Below are positions 515 to 15,467 of a stretch of DNA of 15,467 bases, piece after piece. This DNA is from a virus (Duplodnaviria > Heunggongvirae > Uroviricota > Caudoviricetes), in IMG/VR virus record IMGVR_UViG_2695420714_000022; one strand, given 5' to 3'. How positions within the stretch are numbered: the first letter of the stretch is position 1; each line of letters opens with the position of its first letter. Below the pieces are notes generated by a model. It was not told the DNA's origin. It ran no database searches and saw only the letters and a list, made by a program, of their open reading frames with translations. The translations under genes and the position numbers were made by a program.

Positions 515-763
515 ATGCGTGTTGAGATCTGTATCGCTAAAGAAAAAATCACTAAAATGCCAAACGGTGCTGTGGATGCGTTAAAGGAAGAATTAACCCG
601 ACGCATCAGTAAACGTTATGACGATGTAGAGGTGATCGTAAAAGCCACCAGCAACGATGGCCTTTCTGTTACGCGCACCGCCGATAAAGATTCAGCTAAA
701 ACTTTTGTTCAGGAGACTCTGAAAGATACCTGGAAGTCTGCTGACGAGTGGTTTTTTCACTAA
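515..763 (+). CDS. DinI-family DNA-damage-inducible protein (RecA modulator)
   Basis: 82 aa. MRVEICIAK...GAVDAL..ELTRRI...LSV...[15 protein letters not shown] is colinear with E. coli DinI as I remember it (MRIEV.IAK..GAIDAL..ELSRRI..LSV..QETWESADDWF). Strong AGGAGG RBS and a LexA box upstream. Confidence 0.85.
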
Positions 764-1079: not shown

Positions 1080-1625
1080 ATGAATATTAGTGAACTTAAA
1101 AAGTGTATACACTATGAAGTAATAGGTTGTAAACGCCCTTTCTCCTGGCGAAAAGCAATTGTTCGCGCAATAAAACACAGAAGATCACGTTATTTATTTT
1201 GGTGGCGCATAGCAAAATATCTTTTTGATAAAGGCGGATACCGGCGAAAGATTGCAGGAAAAATAGAACGCTTCATTCTTGACAAATACAATGTAACCGT
1301 TCCCTTAACTGTAAATATTGGTAAAGGGTTCGACATATCTTATCTCAATGGCGTTGTTATCGGTCACAAAGTTACAATAGGTGAAAATTGTTCAATTAAG
1401 CCTGGGGTAACTATTGGACTTCGCGGTGAATTTAATGATATGGATATTGTCATAGGAAATAATGTAACCATTGGCTGTAACGCCACCATCCTTGGTGGCA
1501 AAGTGCATATAGGGAATAATGTAAAAATAGGAGCTCATGCATTGGTACTGCATGACATTCCTGATGACTCCACATTCATTACCAAATTTCACTCTGAAAT
1601 TATTTATAATTCATCTCACACATAA
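1080..1625 (+). CDS. Hexapeptide-repeat (left-handed beta-helix) acyltransferase; polysaccharide O-acetyltransferase-like
   Basis: 181 aa. Basic N-terminal segment with a WW motif (RRSRYLFWWRIAKYLF), followed by tandem hexapeptide repeats (VVIGHKVTIGENCSIKPGVTIG ... IVIGNNVTIGCNATILGGKVHIGNNVKIGAHALV). Architecture resembles WcaF/NodL/maltose-type acetyltransferases. The gene is AT-rich by eye compared with the flanking phage genes and has no obvious SD. Confidence 0.75.
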   Translation: MNISELKKCIHYEVIGCKRPFSWRKAIVRAIKHRRSRYLFWWRIAKYLFDKGGYRRKIAGKIERFILDKYNVTVPLTVNIGKGFDISYLNGVVIGHKVTIGENCSIKPGVTIGLRGEFNDMDIVIGNNVTIGCNATILGGKVHIGNNVKIGAHALVLHDIPDDSTFITKFHSEIIYNSSHT

Positions 1626-1635
1626 TTCCGTTTAA

Positions 1636-2208
1636 TCACAGCTCAGGCCATACGATATCCGGGGCTGTATTTATATCAATCCGACTCACTAATACCCGGT
1701 ATTTTTTCCAGGAAGATAGCATCGAAACCTCCTCATCAGTTGCCATTTCAAAATTAACAGCATCCTGCAGAATTGTTATGTTATCAGTCGCTTCCTGGAT
1801 TAATCTTGTCTTTTTCTCTTCCGCCTCCCGGATCCGGAAGAGTTTTTCTGCTTCCGTATCCTTCACCCAGGCTGTGCCGTTCCACTTCTGAAACTCCCCT
1901 TCCGGCGATAACCAGGTAACATTTTCCGGTAACGGACCGAGTTCCGAAATAAATAACGCGTCGCCGGAAGCCACGTCATAGACGGTTTTTCCCCGATGGT
2001 CTTCAACGAGATGCCACGATGCCTCATCACTGTTGAAAACAGCCACGAAGCCAGCCGGAATATCTGGCGGTGCAATATCGGTACTGTTTGCTGGCAGACC
2101 TGTATGAGGCGGAATATATGCGTCACCTTCACCAATAAATTCATTAGTTCCGGCCAGCAGATTATAAATTTTTATGGTCCGTGGTTGTTCAGTCATTCTA
2201 AAATCCAT
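1636..2208 (-). CDS. tfa: Tail fibre assembly protein (Tfa chaperone)
   Basis: [48 protein letters not shown]... matches lambda Tfa from memory. ATG at 2208 is preceded by GAGGTG; the ORF track starts two codons earlier at a GTG (2214). Confidence 0.9.
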
Positions 2209-2216
2209 GTTCACCT

Positions 2217-3107
2217 CTACTTAATATCAGAGACAGAATATTGTTTATTGAGCGTATGGGTGGGAGCACCAATAACGATGCTACTTCCGTGGCTATGTGC
2301 GCCAGAGGTGAGATTGCCTACGGGATTTTCTGGATTAAACCGGTGTGTATGCGAATCAGGGCGAGAGCGATTATTAGTCAGCACGTCATCAGCCTGATGC
2401 ACATGGCTAATACAGAACTGCCCGGAACGTGAGCAATACGTCCGATAATCGCCGCATCCAATATATTTAGTATCCGCATAACGGCAAACAGAATTACCCG
2501 GACAGTATGCATATGTGCCAAATACTGCCGACTGGCGGGATTGTGCGTATTCCCAGTTAATTGATTCTGTTTTTTTATTAAAGTTATCCCATGCCTGCTT
2601 CATCTGCCGGGCAACACTTTCAAACGGCACCTGACCACATCCGGCTCCCATTGCAGGGAATACCACAGTTTTTATTTTCCTGTCTGTCGTTGCGTGTTTA
2701 TTGTGCTGAAAGATGGCAAGCAGAGCGGCCCAGGTTGCGTTATATACAGCGTCTGTTCCGTCAATTGTCAGCGGAACACGCATTGTTGGCGCATGTACCA
2801 GCCAGGGGTGATGATTATGCCCCGTTTCAATTACAAATGCAGAACCTACAGGCTGTTCGCCTAAATATTCACGAAGAATATGATTCTGAACGCGGGACTG
2901 TAACTGAGTACCGAAGAATGCGGTAATGGCGGCATCAACGCCGCCATCCATCAGGCCGAAACTATTTGCCGCACTTACCATGCAGTCAAATTCTCTGATT
3001 GTTTCAAATGGCTTTCCGACAATATTCACATTATCTGCGTTTGCAAATACCCGCTTAAATGCTTCCGCCATTTCTGTTACTGGTGCAGAAAGAATGAGCG
3101 TAATCAT
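2217..3107 (-). CDS. Macro-domain (ADP-ribose binding/hydrolase-like) protein with Cys/His-rich C-terminal tail, inserted between stf and tfa
   Basis: 296 aa. Start ATG overlaps the stf stop (ATGA) and is preceded by GAGG; stop TAG at 2217-2219 lies 9 bp upstream of the tfa ATG. The N-terminal ~200 aa carry the MacroD-type signature N-x6-GG-V-D ([17 protein letters not shown]) and a second Gly-rich loop ([14 protein letters not shown]). The C-terminal ~100 aa have five Cys and HxH motifs (SHTH, AHSH). Confidence 0.75.
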
Positions 3108-6079
3108 GCAAGCCTCACAATATAGTTAAATGCGATGTTTTTGACGGTGTTTTCCGCGTTACCAGCAGCGTTAACGGTGATGGTGTGTCCATGTGAACCA
3201 ATCGCAACAGAGTGCGTATGAGCGCCAATACCAACTGTATGTGCATGCGCCCCTGCACTTGCAGCAGTGCCTGATACTGAGTGGGTGTGTGCACCAGAAG
3301 AAGGCACTGTTCCATTCCCCACGATCGTGCCACTTGATGAACCATCAAGCCAGTCGAAATTCATACCGCCACTGTTTGGTCTCCTTAATGGAACGGTATG
3401 AGTATGTGCGCCAGCACTATTTGCAGTACCAGATACATTGTGGGTATGTGCACCAGTGTTATTCGTGGATTTAGTGCCGTAATCAAAAGATGATGTGGTT
3501 TTCGTCCCCAAATCCGTACTGGATGCGCTGGCGCTGTGGGTGTGCGATTTAATGCCGTCCTGTTCCTGAGACAATACGGCCCGGCCACTGGCGGGTTTGC
3601 CCTTGATTGTCCAGCCGCGCATATCTGGAATAACACCTGAAGGATAGGCAATAGCCAGTTTCGGATATGCTGCCTTATCAAACGTCTGCCCCTGCATGAT
3701 TGCATAACCTGCAGGTGGTGTATCTGATGGCCACGGCAGCGGAACACCTGGCGGAAACGCTTCAATATTTGCCGAGCCGTCAAATTTTACGCCGTTAATT
3801 GTCCTTGCAGTTTGCAATTTGGTTGCTGTGCTTGCATTACCCGATAAAGATCCAGTGATACCACCACTCGCGTTTAATTTAGTTGCAATTGTAACATTGC
3901 CAGTATGGTTACTAATTATAAACGGCCTTAAGCTATTGTGCGTACCAAGACTGTTACCCGAATCTGTCAACATAAAATATGTGTTTGATCCATCATTTCG
4001 GATAAAGAATCCATAGTTGCCATAGGCAATACGCAGACCATTTGCTGACCTTGAAATAACCTCACCAGCAGCAGTTAAACCACCTGAAAGAGTCCCTCCA
4101 GTTAATGCCAATGCCCCAATATTTGAAGGGGTCAATGTGATATTTGCACTACCATCAAATGACACACCGTTAATCGTTCTGGCTGCCTGAAGTTTCGTGG
4201 CGGTCGCAGCATTACCTGTAGTGTTTTGATTACCGGTAGCGTTGACTCCAGGCAAGTTGATATCTGCCGATCCATCAAATGCCACGCCCCCAATCTTACG
4301 TGCTGTCTTGATCTTGGTCGCAGTATCTGCGTTTCCGGTCAAATTACCAGTAACACTACCACCAACTTTTAGTCCATTACCGATGGACACCAACCCTGAT
4401 CTTAAGTTTATAGAGAATGGTCTTAATGAACCGATGTCTCCATTTTCCCCCTCCCCTTCATTAGTCGGAATAAGATGAAGATGATCTTCGGAACGCCTAA
4501 AAATAAGGCCAAAGGCTTGGTTGAATATTCGAAGAGCATTTATCGTGCTGATTTTTAACTGCCCTCCCATTGTGTCGCCAGTTTTTTGAACTGAACTATC
4601 TTTAACAGTTTTAACTGCCTTTGGCGTTGCCGCCAGCTTTTCACTGGTGCTGTTTGTTGCACTGCTGAGCTGTACTATCCCCTTTTTCGTCGTGCTCGCA
4701 TCCTCCAGCGCCACGGCGGATGCAATATCCTCTGCCCGTTTTGCTGCTGTCTCGGCGCGCGTTGCCGCGGATTCAGCAGCAACTTTGCTCTGAGATGCAG
4801 CCGTCGCACTGCCTGCTGCCTCTGATGCTTTCGTTGTTGCTGTCGTGGCACTACCTTTCGCTGCTGACGCTTGTCTGGTCGCCTCATCTTTTGAAGCAGA
4901 CGCAGATGATGCCGATGACGCCGCTGAACTGGCTGACGATGCGGCTGCCGCCTTAGAGGAAGCAGCATTGTCTGCTGAAGTCTTTGCATTTGTTTCAGAG
5001 GTTTTTGCTGCAGAAGCAGACCTCGCTGCTGCAGTGGCTTGCTCAGTGGCTTTGCCAGCCTTCGTTGTGGCTGTTGAAGCGGATGATGCGGCGCTTTCTG
5101 CCGATTTTCCGGCGGCGGTGGCACTGGCTGAGGCCTGCCCGGCACTTGTTGACGCGGCACTGGCAGATAATGCAGCCGCTGTTTTTGAACCTGCCGCAGC
5201 TGAGGCGCTCTGTCCCGCTGCTGTTTCAGAAGACTTAGCGTTCGTCTCGGACGTTTTTGCCGCCTTCGCGGAATTTCCTGCCGCCGTTGCCGAGGAAGCT
5301 GCACTACTGGCACTTGATGATGCATTCGTTTCTGAAGATTTCGCTGCCTCTTTTGAGGCCGCCGCACCCCGTGCCGAGGTGGCAGCTTCTGACGCCTTCG
5401 TGGTCGCTGTGGATGCAGAAGTGGCTGCCGATTTTTGTGATGCTGCGGCATTCGTTTCTGACGTTTTCGCGGCACTGGCGCTGGTAGCTGCCGCGCTTTT
5501 TGATGACTCTGCAGCAGCAGCACTTTTTGCTGCTTCACGGGCCTTTGTCGATGCCGTTCCTGCGCTGGAAGACGCTGACTGAGCCGACGACGCGGCCTGT
5601 CCGGCTGACGTGCTGGCGGCACGTGCTGAGGCTGCAGCATCGGTTGCATGAGTTGCCGCCTCGCTGGCTGATGCACTGGCATCGCTGGCTGATTTTTTCG
5701 CGGCTGCCGTATTCTGTGCAACCGCGGAGGCGTTACGTGACACCTCTTCCACCATCTGCTCAAAGCGGCGCAGTGCCTCCGGTCGGACATCATCCTCCGT
5801 CATGGCACCGAGAAAATCATTCAGCGTACCTGGTCTGGAACCTTCATAGACGGTAATGGTCCCGGCATGTGAAGGCGGAAAACCTTCAACCAGCAGGGTG
5901 ACGCTGTACTGGCCATGCTCAACATCCATGCTGTAACGTCCGGCTTCATCCGGATTTTCAGAGGCCACCGTGTTCACCACCACCGTGCTGCTGGTTCGTC
6001 TGGCCTTCAGCACAATGGTGCAGTTCTGTACTGGTTTTCCTGTGCCATCTTTAAGCACGCCAGAAATTTTTACTGTCAT
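3104..6079 (-). CDS. stf: Side tail fibre protein (Stf), mosaic
   Basis: 991 aa. N-terminus [22 protein letters not shown]... and C-terminus ...[40 protein letters not shown] match lambda Stf from memory. Contains a long Ala/Ser-rich low-complexity segment and a central module with three ~30-aa tail-fibre repeats. Confidence 0.9.
3779..4345 (-). repeat. Three in-frame coding repeats (~90 bp each) inside stf
   Basis: Protein repeats [29 protein letters not shown] / [29 protein letters not shown] / [29 protein letters not shown]; the corresponding DNA repeats are visible near 4255-4345, 4138-4216 and 3779-3850. Confidence 0.7.
4760..5720 (-). repeat. Ala/Ser/Thr-rich low-complexity coding region of stf (approximate bounds)
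   Basis: Roughly 320 aa dominated by A, S, T and K with recurring AAKTSETNA / SASSAASSA units. The GC-rich repetitive DNA generates long spurious ORFs in other frames on both strands. Confidence 0.8.
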
Positions 6080-6092
6080 ACTTTTCCACCAA

Positions 6093-6125
6093 TAAAAAAA
6101 GCCCGCAGCAGTGACGCCACGGGCT
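6093..6125 (-). terminator. Candidate rho-independent terminator after lom
   Basis: Stem AGCCCG (6100-6105) / CGGGCT (6120-6125) with a 14-nt loop; on the minus strand it is followed by a run of seven T (complement of 6093-6099). Confidence 0.45.
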
Positions 6126-6230
6126 TCAGGACAGTGTAACTTTACGTTTCCTCAAACGCAGTTCACCCCATAAGGTGGATGAACCTGCGTATCATAACAA
6201 TATTTACAGAAGATAAATCGGCGTCTGTTG

Positions 6231-6830
6231 TCAGAAACGGTATCCGATACCAACAATAAATGCATCCGTTCGCCAGTCGCCACTACCGGAACCTTCATAA
6301 GCAAGGTCAATGGCCACGGATTCTGTCGGGTTAAACTGCACGCCAGCCCCCCACGCCAGAGACGTGTTGCTGTGGCGACCGTCATCACTTCCGGTCAGCA
6401 CGTCGTGCGTTTTCCCCTTGTTGTCAGTTACGCGGAGATAATCCCCGGAGAAAGTCGACACACGGCTGTAAGCCATACCCGCCATCACATACGCGCTGAA
6501 CCATTCATTCACGCGCACAGACGGCCCCGCCATCACGCTGAACCAGCGGTTACGCACGGAATCTTCATGCCAGCGGGTATCGCTGTAGTGCGTTTTTTGC
6601 TCATCCTCAGCATTGGCATAACTGAAGGACGTAATCAGCCCCAGCGCGTCCGTAAACTCATAACGGTATTTCACGTTAATCCCGTTCAGATTATCGCTGC
6701 CGGGAGCGTTCGTACGGGCATGAAGATACCCCGCGCTCAGTGTGGACTGATATTCAGACGCCCATGCAGGCGCACCGGATACGGACAGACAGATGGCTGC
6801 GGACAAAATGGCTGCACAAACTTTACGCAT
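6231..6830 (-). CDS. lom: Ail/Lom-family outer membrane beta-barrel protein
   Basis: 199 aa. Signal peptide MRKVCAAILSAAICLSVSGAPAWA and C-terminal ...GIGYRF; near-identical to lambda Lom from memory. GAGG RBS 7 nt upstream. Confidence 0.9.
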   Translation of the reverse strand: MRKVCAAILSAAICLSVSGAPAWASEYQSTLSAGYLHARTNAPGSDNLNGINVKYRYEFTDALGLITSFSYANAEDEQKTHYSDTRWHEDSVRNRWFSVMAGPSVRVNEWFSAYVMAGMAYSRVSTFSGDYLRVTDNKGKTHDVLTGSDDGRHSNTSLAWGAGVQFNPTESVAIDLAYEGSGSGDWRTDAFIVGIGYRF

Positions 6831-6851
6831 AATTACCTCTCGCTTTTCTGC

Positions 6852-6878
6852 AATAAAAAAGGCGCCATTTCTGGCGCC
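6852..6878 (-). terminator. Candidate rho-independent terminator between J and lom
   Basis: Stem GGCGCCA (6861-6867) / TGGCGCC (6872-6878) with 4-nt loop; on the minus strand followed by TTTTTTATTG. Confidence 0.55.
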
Positions 6879-6897
6879 CGTATATGGGTTATAAAAT

Positions 6898-9800
6898 TCA
6901 GCTGATACTGATGCCTGCGGTGGCTTTCTTCATCACCACAACCAGCAAATCGCTGATACATGCTGTGGGATACCAGTTATTCACCAGCCATGCTGACACC
7001 GAAAACTCCAGCGTCATGTGACCGTGACCGGCAGGCATATCAATAACACCACTGTAAATCAGCGTATTATCCAGCGCGGTACGGTTATAAATTTCAGCAC
7101 CGTTTTTCCGCACTATCAGACGGCATGAGGAGTAAATATCAGTATGCTCTTTCTCATGTTTAGCGCCGCTGAATGCCACCGCCGGAATAACAATCTGCCG
7201 GTCAAACGGCTGATCGTCATAAACCCTGACGGTAATGGTCCCTGATGGCCACCGCTCCGGTGCACGGGAGTCCCGGGGGAAAGCTTTGCCCACTGTTTTA
7301 ACGAGATCGCCTTCAATCTGGTTGGCGGACAATTTTCCCAGAACCCGACAGTTCTCGTTAATCGTGACGTTGTTGAGCGTCCCGGAGTTCGCATTCACGT
7401 TACCGCTGATATCGGCATTTTTCGCCGTCAGCCGCCCGTCCGGTGTCAGGGAAAATGCCGGAGGATTACCGCCGCTGGTAATGGTCGGAGCTGTCAGGCG
7501 TTTCAGGAACACGTCGTTCATGAATATCTGATCGCCCTGACCAACAAACATCGGCTTTGTGTTGCCATTCGCAGGATTAATCATCGCAATCCGGTCAGCA
7601 GCCAGAAGCACCTGACTCTGCATACCTGCTGGCGTATTCCCAATACCGGCTCCGATACCCGCAATATAAAGGCGTCCGTCCTTCATCTGCTGCAGTTTCA
7701 CGGCCCACATGCTGTTCAGGTTATTATTTGTATCAACCTGAACTTTCTGTATCTGCTGGATTGCCGCACTCTGGTCTTCCAGTTTTTTATTGACGGTCTG
7801 CGTGATTTCATTGCTGACATTCGTAATGGACGTCCTGATTTCAGCCAGGTCCGGCGCAAGCTGACCGTTATCAATCTGCGTCCACAACTCCTGGGCCAGA
7901 TGTGTTTTCCCGATTTCTCCTTTGAAAAAATCCAGGTAACCTTCCGCATCATCGCTCGCCCGACCGACAGCCTCCACGAATGCCGATTTGCCAACGGTGT
8001 TCACACTGCGAACGTAAAAATAATAATCATGGCCCGGTTTGATATTGATACTGGCGGCTATCCAGTACAGCGCCGTACCAAGATAGCGGGCTGTGGTTTC
8101 AACCTGCCTGATATCGGTAATCCGCTTTTCCGAGAACCAGAACTCAAACTGTACCGTCGGGTCATAAACAGCAAGATGCGGCGTGGCGGTTATCTGAAAA
8201 TAGCCCGGCGTCAGCTCAATCCTCGACGGTGCTGCCGGTGCGGCAATCCGGAACGATACCGACGCCGGATCGCCCTGCTGCCCCCGGGCATTTACCGCCC
8301 GGACTGTCAGCCTGTAGTTCCCCAGCGCCAGTTGCGTGAAGCGGTATGTGGTTTCCGTCGTCCGGGCCGTGCTGACCAGTCGCTCACTGCCGTCGTCCGC
8401 TGTTACGGTCAGACGGAGCAGGAAGCTCACGCCCTTCACCACCTTCGGTGTGTCCCATCGCGCCAGCACCTGATATTCCCCGCTGTCTGCAGTGACTTCG
8501 GCGGTCAGGTGCTGCACTGCTGGCGGCGTGACACCATTCACCGTGCCGCTCTGGTCACCGTCAAAGTGCGCCCCGTTATCCACGATGGCTTCTTTCTCCG
8601 GTACATGCTGCACGGCGGTGATGGCATACGTGCCGTCATCGTTCTCACGGATACTCACGCAGCGGAACAGGCGCTGGCGCAGCGTCGGCAGCTTCAGCCC
8701 CCACACGCTGTATTCTGCAACGCCGTCAGGAACACGGCTCACTTTCACCTTCACGCCGTCGGTGACGGACTGGACCTCCACGCTGACCGGATTACCCTGA
8801 CCGTCAACCAGGCTTATCAGCGTGGTACCGGAGGATGGCAGCGTGATTTCACGGTCGAGCGTCAGCGTCCGGGTCTGGCTGTTCACCGCCAGCACGCGCC
8901 CGCCGGTGCTGATACCCGCATAGTCATCATCGCAGATTTCAATGACATCCCCCGGTACATGGCGAAGCCCTTCCGCACCCACGCTGAAGTCCACGGTCTG
9001 CGTTTCCAGCAGTTCCGTTTTAATCAGCCACAGCCCGGCGCGGTGCGCCTGCCCCCGGCTGGTACAGCCAAAGGCATCCATCTTCGTGACGTTACGACCG
9101 TAACGGGCAATGGCCTGCGTATCTTCAACAAGCTCTGTCGCCGTCTCCCAGCCGTTATCCGGGTCAATCCAGTTCACCTCAACGGCATTATGACGGTCCT
9201 TCAGGGCACTGAAGCTGTAGCGGAACGGCGCGCCATCATCCGGCATCACCACATTACTGCGGTTATAGGTCCACACCTTATCCGACGGTCGGTCCTGCAC
9301 GAACGTCAGCGTCTGCCCGTTCCATACCGGCATACAGCGCATCGCCGAGCAGAAATCACTGAGAACATCCCACGCCTTGCGCTGTGTGGTCAGGTAGGCA
9401 TTACAGGTGATGCGCGGCTCCGTGCCACCAAAGCCATCCGGCACCGACTGGTCGCAATTCTGGCCGATGACATACAGCGCCCATTTGTCCACATCCGCCG
9501 CACCGAGACGCTTCCCCATGCCGTAGCGCGGATGGGTCAGCATATCCCACAGACACCAGGCCATGTTGTTGCTGTATGCTGGCTTAAACGTTCCGTCCCA
9601 GATACCGCTGTATTGCCGCGTCTGCGGGTTATAGTTCGACGGCACCTGCAGAATGCGCCCGCGAAGATGATAATTACGGCTCACCTGCTGGCTGCCGAAC
9701 TGTTCCGAGTCCACCTGCACGCCGACCAGTGCCGTGTTCGGGTAGCCCTGTTTCACATCGATGATTTCGGTGTATGACGACCAGAGCGTTTTGTTCTGCA

Positions 9801-10377
9801 GCTGGTCTGTGGTGCTGTCCGGCGTCATTCTGCGCATCCGGATATTAAACGGGCGCGGCGGCAGGTTATCCACCACCACCGAGGCCAGATACTGCGAGGT
9901 GGTTTTGCCCTTAATGGTGATGTCTTTTTCCGTCACCCAGCCACCGTTACGCTGGATCTGAACCAGCAGGCGGACTTCCGACGGATTCCTGTCCCCCTTT
10001 GAGGTGGTTTCCACCAGTGCCTGCACACCGAAGGTAAAGCGCAGACGGTCGATGTTTGCCGACGTGATGGTCCGGGTGATCGGCGTGTCATATTTCACTT
10101 CCGTACCCAGCACCGTCTCGGAGCCGGAGGATTCAAATCCCTCCGGCGGTGTCTGCTCCTGCTCACCTGCCCGGAACACCACCGTGACACCGGATATATT
10201 GGTATTCCCCTCACTGTCCAGCACCGGCGTACTGTTCAGCAGCACGCTTTTTAATCCGTCCACCGGACCTTCAACCGGCCCTTCGCTGATGGCATCGATC
10301 ACACTCAGCAGCTGCGTGGACTTCAGGTTGTCCCTCGCTTCGCGCGGGGTATGCCCCTTACTGCTTCCTTTACCCAT
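6898..10377 (-). CDS. J: Tail tip / host specificity protein J (central tail fibre)
   Basis: 1159 aa, lambda J-like throughout, with C-terminus ...[45 protein letters not shown] resembling the LamB-binding end of lambda J from memory. GAGGA RBS immediately upstream. Confidence 0.95.
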
Positions 10378-10443: not shown

Positions 10444-10782
10444 TTATTTACATGCATTAACACTATCAGCAAAAATTTTTGGCGTTAATGCTGGTACACG
10501 TTCATAAAGAGTAAAACTACTGCCATTTCCTGCTTTTTTGATATCAAGCACAACATCATATCCCCCCATAGCCTGTGGAACTAAAAGGCTTACCCCATTC
10601 TCAATAGGAAGGGATGTTATAGGTGTTCCATTACCAGCCCATTGTCTGGATATGCAGCCTGACAATTCATCAATATTTTTTAATGAATTACCTTCCATTA
10701 CAGGTTTTCCGGATTTTACGTAATCCAAAGATTTACATCCTGTTAAGGCAATAATCGTGCAGAATAAAATCGTTTTGTTCAT
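10444..10782 (-). CDS. Small secreted lipoprotein; moron inserted between I and J
   Basis: The second Met of the ORF gives MNKTILFCTIIALTGC, a textbook signal peptide with lipobox L-T-G-C. Mature protein is about 95 aa with two more Cys. The ~480-bp I-J gap is AT-rich by eye, unlike the flanking tail genes; RBS is weak. Confidence 0.6.
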   Translation of the reverse strand: MNKTILFCTIIALTGCKSLDYVKSGKPVMEGNSLKNIDELSGCISRQWAGNGTPITSLPIENGVSLLVPQAMGGYDVVLDIKKAGNGSSFTLYERVPALTPKIFADSVNACK

Positions 10783-10855
10783 ATAGCTAACCAATAGAAT
10801 AATTATCAGTGTTCGATATAAATATTAAATTAGTTAGAACATGAGTAAAATAATA

Positions 10856-12841: not shown

Positions 12842-13170
12842 CAGTTCACCACCTGTTTAAACTCTGCGCTGAACCCAACACGCAACATACTGACCTGCGA
12901 CGACCATTTTGCGCAGGTCACCTTTATCTGCCTGTAACCATAAGGCGGCGTCCACAGAAAGGCCTTCCAGCCCCCGTGCTCAGCCAGAAACGACTCCAGC
13001 GCCGTGGCCTCCTCACGGGAGACAGACAGCGTCACGCTGTACGTTTTCAGGTCAGCGTTCAGCCCGGCAGGCGCACGCTGGGAATAGCCATCACCAAAGC
13101 GCACCTCCCTGACGGAAGGAGCCGATGTCACATCCATCCCGGGTTTCACTTTCCAGCGGAAGGTCTTCAT
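12841..13170 (-). CDS. M: Tail tip protein M
   Basis: 109 aa, same length as lambda M. MKTFRWKVKPGMDVTSAPSVREVRFGDGYSQRAPAGLN... Start ATG overlaps the H stop (ATGA). Confidence 0.9.
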   Translation of the reverse strand: MKTFRWKVKPGMDVTSAPSVREVRFGDGYSQRAPAGLNADLKTYSVTLSVSREEATALESFLAEHGGWKAFLWTPPYGYRQIKVTCAKWSSQVSMLRVGFSAEFKQVVN

Positions 13171-15467
13171 CGTCCACCTCCGGAGAACAGTCCACCATCA
13201 CGCATCTGTGTCTGAATTTCATCACGGGCACCCTTGCGGGCCATGTCATACACCGCCTTCAGAGCAGCCGGACCTATCTGCCCGTTCGTGCCGTCGTTGT
13301 TAATCACCACATGGTTATTCTGCTCAAACGTCCCGGACGCCTGCGACCGGCTGTCAGCCAGACTGCCCGGTGTACCGACATAACCACCGGTGGCATAGCC
13401 GCGCATCAGCCGGTAGAGATTCCCCACGCCAATCCGGCTGGTTGCCTCCTTTGTGAAGACAAATTCACCACGGTGAACAATCCCCGCTGGCTCATATTTG
13501 CCGCCGGTTCCCGTAAATCCTCCGGTTGCAAAATGGAATTTCGCCGCAGCGGCCTGAATGGCTGTACCGCCTGACGCGGATGCGCCGCCACCAACAGCCC
13601 CGCCAATGGCGCTGCCGATACTCCCGACAATCCCCACCATTGCCTGCTTAAGCAGAATTTCTGTCATCATGGACAGCACGGAACGGGTGAATCCCCGCCA
13701 GTTCTGTTCGCTGCCGGTCAGCATCGCCGCCATATTCTGTGCAATACCGTCAAAGGTCTGCGTGGCCACACTTTTAACCTGCGAAAAACTGTCCGTCGCA
13801 CTTTCCGCCCACTCTCCCCAGCCGGACTTCATCCCGGCCATCCAGCTTCCACGAAGCTGCTCCTCCGCAGACCAGGTGTTCTTCAGTGCCGATGTGGCCT
13901 TCGCCAGCGCAGCCGGATTATCACCGTACACCTCACGAAGGCGCTGCTCTTCCGACTCCCGCTGCGCCTGACGGTCGGTGAGGCCGCGGGCTTTTGCGCT
14001 GATTGCCGCCTGCTTCGCGCTTTGCTGCTGTTCAAACCGCGCCGCCTGCTGTGCCAGCTCATTCAGCCGCTTCTGGTGTTCAATCTTGTCTCCCAGCTCA
14101 GCCAGCTGGCGTTTGTACTCCAGCGTCTCTTTCTCATGAGCCAGCAGGGATTTTTCCTGCTCAGATAACTGCCGTTTCGTGGCGGCCTCTTTCAGGACCA
14201 CATACTGACTTTCCGCTTCCCATAAATCCCGGCGCTGCTGGCTGATTTTCTCATTCACACCGCTGTGTTTTTCCAGCGTCCTGAGCTCGGTTTCAAGCGC
14301 CAGCAGGGCTGCATGCGCCCGGTCTTCCTGGCGCTCACCGGCAGACACCTTCACACCTGACGGCTTTTTCAGCGTCGATTCATAATCCTTTTTTGCCGAC
14401 GCCATCAGCGTGTTGTAATCCGCCTGCAGGATTTTTCCGTCTTTCAGGGCCTTATTCAGCTCTTTCTGACGGGCGGTATATTTATCCAGCGGCGTCTGCA
14501 GGCGCTCATACGCCTTCTGCGCCTCTCCGGTATACTTCAGCTGTGACGACTCACGCTCAGCCCTGTCCCTTGCCGCCAGTTCACCGGCTTTTTCCATATC
14601 CGACTGCAGCGTGGCCGCTGCCAGACCCAGACGGGCATTTTCCCGGTCATCCCATGCCCCCTGAAGGTTCGCACGAAAAGAGGAGGTCTTTCCCCGGCGC
14701 TGGCTCCGGCTCTGGTACCACTGCCATTTTTTATCCGCCTCATCAAATGCCTTCTGCGCACTGGCGAGCATATCCGCTGAGGATTCCGGACGACCGATAT
14801 CCAGAATGGCATCCCACATCGATTTGAATGCCTTCCCTGTTTTATCCGCCCAGGTCTCCAGTGTTCCCATGTTTTCTTTCAGGCGACGGGTCTGCTCATC
14901 AAAGCCTTTCGTGGCGATATCGTTCGCCGCCTGCAATGCCCCGGCCTCGTCTCCGGAACGCTGCAGCTGTGCAACATACGCAATCTGCTCTGCCGTCACG
15001 TTACGGAACTGGCGCGCCATCGCCATCAGTCCCGACGTCGGGTCAGTGGTCAGCTTCCCGAAGGCTTCAGCGACTTTATCCACCTCCACACCGGATGCAG
15101 ACGCAAAACGCGCGACACTCTGGTTGATGGCATCAAACTGTTCACCACCACGCACACCGGCATTCACCAGGGCTGCCAGTGACTCTCTCGCCTGGTTAAA
15201 CGTCAGCCCTGCTGCCTGCCCGGCTCTTGAGAGCGTCAGCATACGATCGGCAGTCAGTCCGGCCTGATTGCCGGAAAGGACCAGCGTTTTATTAAATTCT
15301 GAAAGCGTGGCGTCGCCCTGGTACCAGGCGTACGCCAGCGCACCTGTCGCCACCGCCAGCGAGGTGACCCCGACCATCGGCAGGGTGATCGCACCGGCAA
15401 GCCCCCTGAACATGGGGATCATCCCGCCGAAGGAGTCCTTCACCTGACCGCCCTGTTGCAGCAGGAT
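13167..15467 (-). CDS. H: Tail tape measure protein H, 5'-truncated by the window edge
   Basis: The frame is open to the last base of the window; the listed start at 15443 is an internal GTG. C-terminus ...NNDGTNGQIGPAALKAVYDMARKGARDEIQTQMRDGGLFSGGGR and the coiled-coil-rich middle are lambda H-like from memory. Confidence 0.9.
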   Translation of the reverse strand: MLLQQGGQVKDSFGGMIPMFRGLAGAITLPMVGVTSLAVATGALAYAWYQGDATLSEFNKTLVLSGNQAGLTADRMLTLSRAGQAAGLTFNQARESLAALVNAGVRGGEQFDAINQSVARFASASGVEVDKVAEAFGKLTTDPTSGLMAMARQFRNVTAEQIAYVAQLQRSGDEAGALQAANDIATKGFDEQTRRLKENMGTLETWADKTGKAFKSMWDAILDIGRPESSADMLASAQKAFDEADKKWQWYQSRSQRRGKTSSFRANLQGAWDDRENARLGLAAATLQSDMEKAGELAARDRAERESSQLKYTGEAQKAYERLQTPLDKYTARQKELNKALKDGKILQADYNTLMASAKKDYESTLKKPSGVKVSAGERQEDRAHAALLALETELRTLEKHSGVNEKISQQRRDLWEAESQYVVLKEAATKRQLSEQEKSLLAHEKETLEYKRQLAELGDKIEHQKRLNELAQQAARFEQQQSAKQAAISAKARGLTDRQAQRESEEQRLREVYGDNPAALAKATSALKNTWSAEEQLRGSWMAGMKSGWGEWAESATDSFSQVKSVATQTFDGIAQNMAAMLTGSEQNWRGFTRSVLSMMTEILLKQAMVGIVGSIGSAIGGAVGGGASASGGTAIQAAAAKFHFATGGFTGTGGKYEPAGIVHRGEFVFTKEATSRIGVGNLYRLMRGYATGGYVGTPGSLADSRSQASGTFEQNNHVVINNDGTNGQIGPAALKAVYDMARKGARDEIQTQMRDGGLFSGGGR

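Follow-up and report, generated by a model that had tools for sequence, protein, structure and literature searches.

Why does the gene of a macro-domain enzyme lie between a side tail fibre gene and the gene for its assembly chaperone, and why does its product end in repeats that resemble those of a fibre tip? This question is raised by a 15,467-nucleotide stretch of viral DNA (IMG/VR record IMGVR_UViG_2695420714_000022, Caudoviricetes), hereafter called the window, which is the late/tail region of a lambdoid Escherichia coli prophage. A 296-amino-acid open reading frame (ORF) on its minus strand, the macro ORF, begins with a macro domain of the MacroD type and ends with an extension of about 110 amino acids that carries several cysteines and His-x-His (HxH) motifs, here called the macro tail. 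A sequence-only reading of this DNA had proposed that the macro tail is either a fibre-like trimerisation or attachment module or a relic of a duplicated 3' end of the fibre gene stf.

We consider the chances about even that the macro tail is a real, selected and family-specific C-terminal module, metal-binding and serving fibre-type oligomerisation or docking, on an accessory MacroD-type enzyme. The module is conserved and bipartite, it shares motif and period with the needles of tail fibres, it is under purifying selection, and its gene is a precisely inserted accessory. Metal binding, the oligomeric state, the involvement of the chaperone Tfa and any contact with a fibre are what we infer from these features, and a physical tether of the macro protein to the virion fibre is, judging from sequence, possible. 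The ORF is divided as follows, where dN/dS is the ratio of non-synonymous to synonymous substitution rates and AF2 is AlphaFold2.

2217-3107, minus strand: macro-domain ORF, 296 aa (ORF table; phrog_2613, E=5.6e-142)
2553-3107, minus strand: macro domain proper, MacroD-type, aa 1-185 (PF01661, E=8.6e-19)
2382-2552, minus strand: linker helix and Cys module, aa 186-242 (alignments, dN/dS, AF2)
2502-2504, 2484-2486, 2433-2435 and 2412-2414, minus strand: conserved C202, C208, C225 and C232, respectively
2454-2456, minus strand: C218, not conserved
2397-2405, minus strand: HVH 235-237, allele-specific and not a family repeat, only H237 being conserved
2220-2381, minus strand: variable HxH-repeat region, aa 243-296 (family array, hhalign, dN/dS, AF2)
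2343-2351, minus strand: HTH 253-255, a conserved family repeat of the G[AS]HxH[QR](I/F)NP type
2289-2297, minus strand: HSH 271-273, the sole canonical fibre-type repeat in this allele
2253-2270, minus strand: GAPTHT 280-285, a decayed repeat that is GAHTHT in close alleles, with His changed to Pro here

Nucleotides 2217-2519 of the minus strand encode amino acids 197-296 plus the stop codon, and the five cysteines that the sequence-only reading saw in this part are present at positions 202, 208, 218, 225 and 232. It was also right that HxH motifs occur there, although it counted two and there are three literal ones (235-237, 253-255 and 271-273). When the macro tail was shuffled 100,000 times, at least three HxH motifs arose in 0.3% of the trials. 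For a single sequence this result is moderate, and conservation across the family is the stronger argument.

The ORF belongs to phrog_2613, a narrow family of Enterobacteriaceae prophages that is listed in PHROGs with function unknown and whose members are named either 'macro domain-containing protein' or 'phage tail protein' at NCBI. Representatives are found in Escherichia, Salmonella, Citrobacter, Enterobacter and Erwinia, and hundreds of clusters from these five genera keep the frame open. Among 50 non-redundant homologues, the first part of the extension is fixed and follows the pattern A200-Y-C202-P...C208...Y215-I-G217-x-G219...T223-x-C225...G229...C232-I233...H237-Q238. Three of its cysteines (C202, C225 and C232) are invariant and C208 is retained in at least 90% of the homologues, and the four are arranged as two pairs (C202-x5-C208 ... 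C225-x6-C232). The position of C218 is occupied by C, F, S, L or Q in relatives. The HVH motif at 235-237 also sits in this fixed part, and only H237 is kept because relatives have NPEHQ or SPRHQ there. A hypervariable array of one to four [I/T]-G-[A/S/T]-H-x-H repeats follows, wherein variation takes the form of insertions and deletions by repeat unit and of occasional decay of His to Tyr or Pro.

There is little sign of the macro tail outside this family. A phmmer search of 1.84 billion representatives with the tail sequence returned only the family and one spurious repetitive protein (P0124). A profile built from 14 tails recovered only family members and truncated fragments from 5.8 billion clustered proteins, with no other architecture that includes the Cys module. 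The same module has no match in Pfam, and phmmer found nothing for the tail in the PDB at E<=10. Among 5426 complete E. coli genomes, the tail DNA is present in 128, always inside the macro gene (128/128) and never in a fibre gene. It is 100% identical in two complete genomes (BEC1-S17-ESBL-09 and Z1323PEC0013), and 22 of the 131 places that match are on plasmids, at least one of which is P1-like. A wider query (1500-3600) to which the stf tip and tfa are added has matches in 4448 E. coli genomes.

Some unusual forms of the ORF were also seen. Truncated ORFs of 100-190 aa that retain the tail only, or the tail and a stump of the macro domain, occur in many Salmonella genomes and in phage SEN34, where the tail fragment (locus L005, 5001-5156) adjoins an O-acetyltransferase gene. 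These fragments (proteins P0125-P0145), some of which are found on more than 100 contigs, look like deletion remnants. In addition, a protein of 463 aa (P0020, on an 8.4 kb Logan contig) carries an annotation in which the macro-tail protein is fused to an actin-like segregation protein (ParM/StbA); it is probably a deletion or assembly chimera in a P1-like plasmid.

The fibre to which the macro tail is to be compared is encoded directly upstream.

3104-6079, minus strand: stf, side tail fibre, 991 aa (Pfam phage_tail_N, Gp34_trimer, Collar and Phage_fiber; ORF table)
3107-3850, minus strand: Stf tip of the T4 gp37 type, with collar, HxH iron needle and small head, and seven HxH motifs (phmmer, HxH positions)

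With phmmer, the C-terminal 248 residues of Stf align to the receptor-binding tip of T4 gp37, whose crystal structure is known (2XGF; E=1.2e-84), and Stf scores 25.8 bits against the Pfam Phage_fiber model, for which the cut-off is 20. The seven HxH motifs of the Stf tip are therefore those of the iron-binding needle. Repeated GAH(T/A)H motifs had been noted at the Stf C-terminus, and indeed five of the seven have the form GAH[T/A]H. In the gp37 needle, seven iron atoms lie along the structure and the iron-binding histidines are essential for fibre function (PMC6957217).

With respect to this needle, the proposal of a fibre-like macro tail holds for the HxH repeats, whose motif, period and profile are of the fibre type. 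The family consensus around HxH, [I/T]-G-[A/S]-H-x-H-[T/A/G]-[I/V], is shared with the gp37/Stf needle, and the modal spacing between HxH motifs is 9 in both sets (20 of 40 in Stf tips, 17 of 44 in macro tails). Direct pairwise alignment of the tail with Stf by BLASTP gave short, HxH-centred matches with E values of about 0.02-0.04 for a single comparison and nothing longer. Such matches are too weak alone, and profile and motif tests were therefore used. In hhalign, 47 distinct HxH regions aligned to the Stf tip with a score of 38 (P=4.5e-6, probability 87-89%), wherein the match covers only 37 columns and corresponds to Stf 926-967, the needle segment that returns from the tip. Shuffling the columns of the profile 150 times gave scores of 9.5 +/- 2.1 with a maximum of 19.8, and none reached 38.

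A position-specific scoring matrix (PSSM) built from the flanks alone of 40 Stf-tip HxH motifs gives a mean of +3.5 for 52 distinct macro-tail motifs and of -6.1 for 45 background HxH motifs (Mann-Whitney p=3e-12). In the window's own allele, HSH 271-273 scores 4.78, a value reached by 2% of background motifs. The flanks of HTH 253-255 are not fibre-like (-6.5), and HVH 235-237 is no better than background (-5.2). The spacing from HSH 271-273 to the decayed repeat is 11. Thus, this allele presents as a partly degenerate array with one canonical, one family-type and one decayed repeat. Tandem Repeats Finder detected no DNA tandem repeats within 2000-6200 of the window, the Stf shaft stretch included, and the repeats therefore exist at the protein level only. 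On these comparisons, the similarity of the macro tail to the Stf needle is one of profile and motif only.

Structure prediction separates the two parts of the extension. With the family alignment as input, AF2 folded the macro domain of the full protein and not its tail. When the tail was modelled alone, the Cys module formed a small beta domain with predicted local distance difference test (pLDDT) values of 62-74, and the HxH part remained at about 30. Foldseek found no significant match for the tail model (best PDB entry E=0.93), and the top entries were small beta domains (Hfq, PWWP and chains of HIV intasome entries). Monomer AF2 and Foldseek therefore yielded neither the confident monomeric zinc ribbon that the sequence-only reading had set against its own proposal nor a confident fibre fold. 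An unfolded HxH part in a monomer model is as expected if partners or metal are needed.

The first part of the macro tail would thus be a small beta-rich knot in which the conserved C202, C208, C225 and C232 most likely form a structural metal site, presumably for zinc. The second part would be a fast-evolving [I/T]-G-[A/S]-H-x-H array of the kind with which the gp37/Stf needle binds iron on its three-fold axis. Such an array presumably cannot fold as a monomer and most likely needs oligomerisation and metal, as in gp37, which would make it a metal-stapled oligomerisation (probably trimerisation) or docking element. Synthesis of the macro protein would be late and coupled through translation to that of Stf and Tfa, and Tfa might also fold it. 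This would yield a macro enzyme in multimeric form, perhaps kept close to the complex that assembles the fibre.

The enzymatic part of the protein is more readily classified. Pfam Macro (PF01661) matches aa 44-169 with 68.1 bits, where the gathering cut-off is 22, and it also matches 50 of the 50 homologues. The motif N48-x6-G55-G56-V57-D58 is encoded at 2934-2966 and the loop G154-A-G-C-G158 at 2634-2648, and N48, G55, G56, V57, D58, G154, A155, G156 and G158 are invariant among the homologues. In the AF2 model of aa 1-180, most 10-residue blocks have a mean pLDDT of 63-91 and three loop blocks have 44-53. The best Foldseek match of the macro model is 1njr (Poa1p), with E=1.3e-8, and 2dx6 (TTHA0132), MacroD2 and YmdB are also matched. 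Thus, the macro domain looks catalytically intact and would be an ADP-ribose binder or hydrolase. The only match among PADLOC defence-protein models is DarG (E=0.0047 over 38 aa), and matches to DarG models are marginal overall (E of about 0.005-0.07 over 38 aa). No specific family for the macro protein was found in NCBIfam or PADLOC.

Purifying selection acts on the whole ORF to different degrees. It is strongest on the macro domain, where dN/dS is 0.06-0.20 and the closest pair shows no non-synonymous change at all. The Cys module follows with 0.14-0.46, and the values of the HxH region span 0.26-0.83.

The position of the gene is defined by its junctions with stf and with the chaperone gene.

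2209-3102, minus strand: 894-nt segment absent from the 94%-identical stf-tfa cassette of vB_EcoM-613R2 (blastn break points)
1636-2208, minus strand: tfa, tail fibre assembly chaperone of the lambda Tfa / T4 gp38 type (PF02413, E=5.7e-38)

The 894-nt segment contains the macro gene and the Shine-Dalgarno spacer for tfa, whose ATG is at 2206-2208 with AGGTGA five nucleotides upstream. In vB_EcoM-613R2, the 94%-identical stf 3' end directly abuts tfa. Therefore, the fibre locus exists without the macro gene, and the gene is not a fixed part of the cassette. Likewise, tfa directly follows stf in lambda, with no macro gene. The insertion is clean, in that the ends of the macro gene derive from neither stf nor tfa.

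Gene context was compared at eight loci from five phage lineages: lambdoid (the window and Gifsy-1), P2-like (Chuche and SEN5), a P1-like plasmid prophage, a Mu-like Enterobacter prophage, and Citrobacter and Erwinia myovirus prophages. All eight have the order gp37-type tip, macro gene and Caudo_TAP (Tfa) chaperone, and in all eight the upstream fibre ends in ...NTVKNIA(F/Y/L)NY(I/L)VRLA. The ATG of the macro ORF overlaps the stf stop codon (ATGA) in the window; this stop/start overlap was read directly in four loci and is implied by a 4-nt overlap of coding sequences in the other four. The macro-tfa junction is also an ATGA overlap in three loci. Such synteny is in line with a functional link between the macro gene and both the gp37-type tip and Tfa. 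As for the overlap itself, a Stf-macro fusion through frameshifting was considered and dropped because a slippery heptamer is absent at the junction.

Unfortunately, several observations weigh against a fibre-type oligomerisation or docking module. Only one of the three HxH motifs of the window's allele has fibre-like flanks (HSH 271-273), and the Pfam Phage_fiber model (PF03335) does not match the macro protein and matches 7 of 50 homologues only at E values of at least 0.76. A similarity that is based on a short repeat could be convergent, and the low AF2 confidence of the HxH part is equally compatible with intrinsic disorder. Common E. coli alleles have lost His (GAPTHT, GTPIHT and GAYNH), and the dN/dS of 0.83 in the HxH region is that between the two closest alleles; therefore, constraint on individual repeats is weak. 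This weakness, of which the decayed repeat of the window is an example, counts against a strictly required needle. Moreover, each chain of the six-stranded gp37 needle contributes two segments, and short macro tails may supply only one. Lastly, the synteny fits the block transfer of one cassette equally well.

A serious rival, though on balance a doubtful one, is that the macro protein works in the cytoplasm as an accessory or anti-defence enzyme, for instance by removing ADP-ribose marks or signals, and hitch-hikes in the most mobile tail cassette. In that case, the macro tail would be a monomeric appendage with a metal-binding or regulatory role, and its HxH array would resemble fibres by convergence. 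The precise accessory insertion of the gene is in keeping with such a role, as are the invariant MacroD catalytic motifs and the fact that purifying selection is strongest on the macro domain. Two further facts suit an appendage of this kind: the Cys module is confined to the family, and alleles can do without single His repeats. In addition, the T4 phage macrodomain AdfM has been reported as an anti-DarTG2 factor (bioRxiv 10.1101/2025.11.20.689424). However, more than the His pairs would have had to converge, namely the flanking residues and the 9-residue period as well. The identical insertion site in five phage lineages, always beside a gp37-type tip, also speaks against this explanation, although block transfer of the cassette could account for it.

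It is unlikely, although this was the main idea of the sequence-only reading, that the HxH/Cys tail docks the macro enzyme on the Stf tip or on the Stf-Tfa complex, such that the enzyme rides on the side fibres of the virion. At every locus examined, the gene is strictly syntenic with a gp37-type tip and Tfa and translationally coupled to them, which would agree with this arrangement, as would the fibre-type repeats of the tail. Nor is another recognisable domain for targeting seen in the protein, whose macro fold starts at residue 1. However, the macro gene is missing from the 94%-identical stf tip-tfa cassette of vB_EcoM-613R2 and from lambda, and the structure 2XGF, which is homologous to the Stf tip, was solved from gp37 chains alone. 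ADP-ribose substrates are located inside the cell and not on its surface. The literature searched yields no virion proteomics of the macro protein, and the name 'phage tail protein' is only an annotation label, which is also carried by apparently stand-alone macro domains of unrelated jumbo phages. The labels on these jumbo-phage proteins were rejected as evidence of a place in the virion for the same reason.

A bolder and rather improbable idea is that the tail of four cysteines (Cys4) and HxH repeats acts as an adaptor. Perhaps it uses the folding pathway of Tfa and metal-stapled trimers to link an enzyme that processes ADP-ribose with the side-fibre/chaperone complex, and so serves to place this enzyme where ADP-ribose-based immunity acts. 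If this were true, the phage would carry an antidote that is welded, physically or genetically, to the trigger.

The nucleotide comparison of 2217-2519 with the window and with stf (blastn and tblastx) gave nothing significant, and at the eight loci there is no significant DNA or translated similarity between the tail and the co-resident stf, the best matches being 12-18 nt at GAHTH codons. A recent duplication or gene conversion from stf is therefore rejected. More generally, the fibre-like repeats, the decayed repeat in the window's allele, the Tyr-for-His repeats of some relatives (GAYAY, GVYTY) and the HxH-region dN/dS of 0.83 between the two closest alleles could suggest that an stf 3' end, duplicated or recombined, became fused to the macro gene and now decays there without a function, but this is highly improbable and largely refuted already by the missing similarity to stf, a conserved Cys module that has no counterpart in any fibre, dN/dS values well under 1 in most comparisons, a clean insertion, an intact frame across hundreds of clusters in the five genera, GC content and third-position GC content (GC3) that match those of the macro part of the gene, and the confinement of the tail DNA to the macro gene in 128 of 128 genomes.

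The remaining genes of the window include the following.

1080-1625, plus strand: hexapeptide (serine/sugar) O-acetyltransferase, convergent with tfa (Pfam Hexapep)
6231-6830, minus strand: lom
6898-10377, minus strand: homologue of J
13167-15443, minus strand: homologue of the tape-measure protein H

Homologues of M, L, K and I are also encoded on the minus strand. The hexapeptide acetyltransferase resembles EpsC/CysE/WcaB in NCBIfam, under the cut-off, and accompanies the tip/tfa cassette with or without the macro gene. It has a matching position in the P1-like plasmid, in vB_EcoM-613R2, where it is shared in the absence of the macro gene, and in the Enterobacter Mu-like prophage (40% identity). 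Besides the copy in the window at 1080-1625 (plus strand), copies are located at 6467-7045 of locus L007 (minus strand), 5581-6126 of L001 and 3478-4041 of L010. One possibility is that this gene is a lysogenic-conversion moron, for surface polysaccharide acetylation, that is linked to the receptor-binding module. A functional pairing of a macro 'deacetylase' with the adjacent acetyltransferase was not adopted, because the acetyltransferase is also present in the macro-less cassette and because Gifsy-1, SEN5, Citrobacter and Erwinia list no hexapeptide acetyltransferase beside tfa. This comparison leaves out Chuche, whose record stops at tfa.

Three further observations concern other parts of the window. 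There is an ORF of 116 aa between the I and J homologues (10444-10794, minus strand) that has a signal peptide and a lipobox (...IIALTGC) and no match in Pfam or PADLOC. This ORF may encode a lipoprotein moron of the prophage, perhaps one that acts in superinfection exclusion. The Stf shaft (aa ~110-470, window ~4700-5750, minus strand) includes a very long low-complexity stretch rich in Ala, Ser and Thr, which gives rise to spurious long ORFs in other frames, such as 4675-5793 and 4845-5582. Downstream of the tail module and on the strand opposite to the tail genes, a DinI-like protein (PF06183, E=1e-18) is encoded at 515-763 (plus strand).

Macro domains and HxH needles are each well known, but no description was found of a macro enzyme with fibre-type HxH repeats behind a private Cys4 module, always inserted between a gp37-type fibre tip and its chaperone. 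Neither a macro domain joined to an HxH/Cys4 module nor the position of its gene has a description in Pfam, PHROGs, NCBIfam, PADLOC or the literature searched. Should the tail prove to be a device for trimerisation or docking that depends on Tfa, it would offer a portable tag by which cargo enzymes could be attached to tail fibres, which would be useful in phage engineering, and it would point to an ADP-ribose-related step tied to fibre production or to the evasion of defence. If it is merely a metal-binding tail on a hitch-hiking anti-defence gene, then the gain is a modest one in annotation, in that the C-terminal domain of the family is defined and 'phage tail protein' proves to be an unsupported name.

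Among known systems, the MacroD-type domains (E. coli YmdB, human MacroD2, Thermus thermophilus TTHA0132 and yeast Poa1p/1njr) share with the macro ORF the Pfam Macro match, the N-x6-GG-V-D motif and the glycine-rich second loop, with Foldseek E values from 1e-8 to 1e-5. However, identity is only about 20-28%, and the macro ORF differs in its 110-aa Cys/HxH extension and its position in a tail-fibre operon. T4 AdfM (Tk.4), which is reported to act against DarTG2, is likewise a phage macro domain that is dispensable for the particle, and a counter-defence role is plausible for the macro ORF as well. In contrast to the macro ORF, AdfM is reported to be stand-alone, without a fibre-like tail or a position in a fibre operon, and no sequence relationship between the two was detected.

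The adhesins of the T2/S16 gp38 type, which are separate proteins on the gp37 tip, are also encoded by a separate gene just downstream of the fibre and have a hypervariable C-terminal part. The macro ORF, however, matches only macro-containing Pfam and PHROG families, has no visible glycine-rich motifs, and lies at a locus that has a Tfa/gp38-type chaperone gene besides.

The closest parallel for the macro tail itself is the T4 gp37/lambda Stf needle (2XGF; PF03335). Unlike the Stf tip, which has seven repeats, macro tails have one to four and lack a collar or head. Their repeats follow a Cys4 module that is unknown in fibres, and the N-terminus is an enzyme rather than a shaft. In addition, the Pfam model stays under threshold and there is no DNA homology for the macro tail. 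The likeness lies in the motif [I/V]-G-x-H-x-H-[T/S]-[V/I], the modal period of 9 and the profile alignment to the returning needle segment, and the macro gene shares its operon with a tip of this type and with its chaperone.

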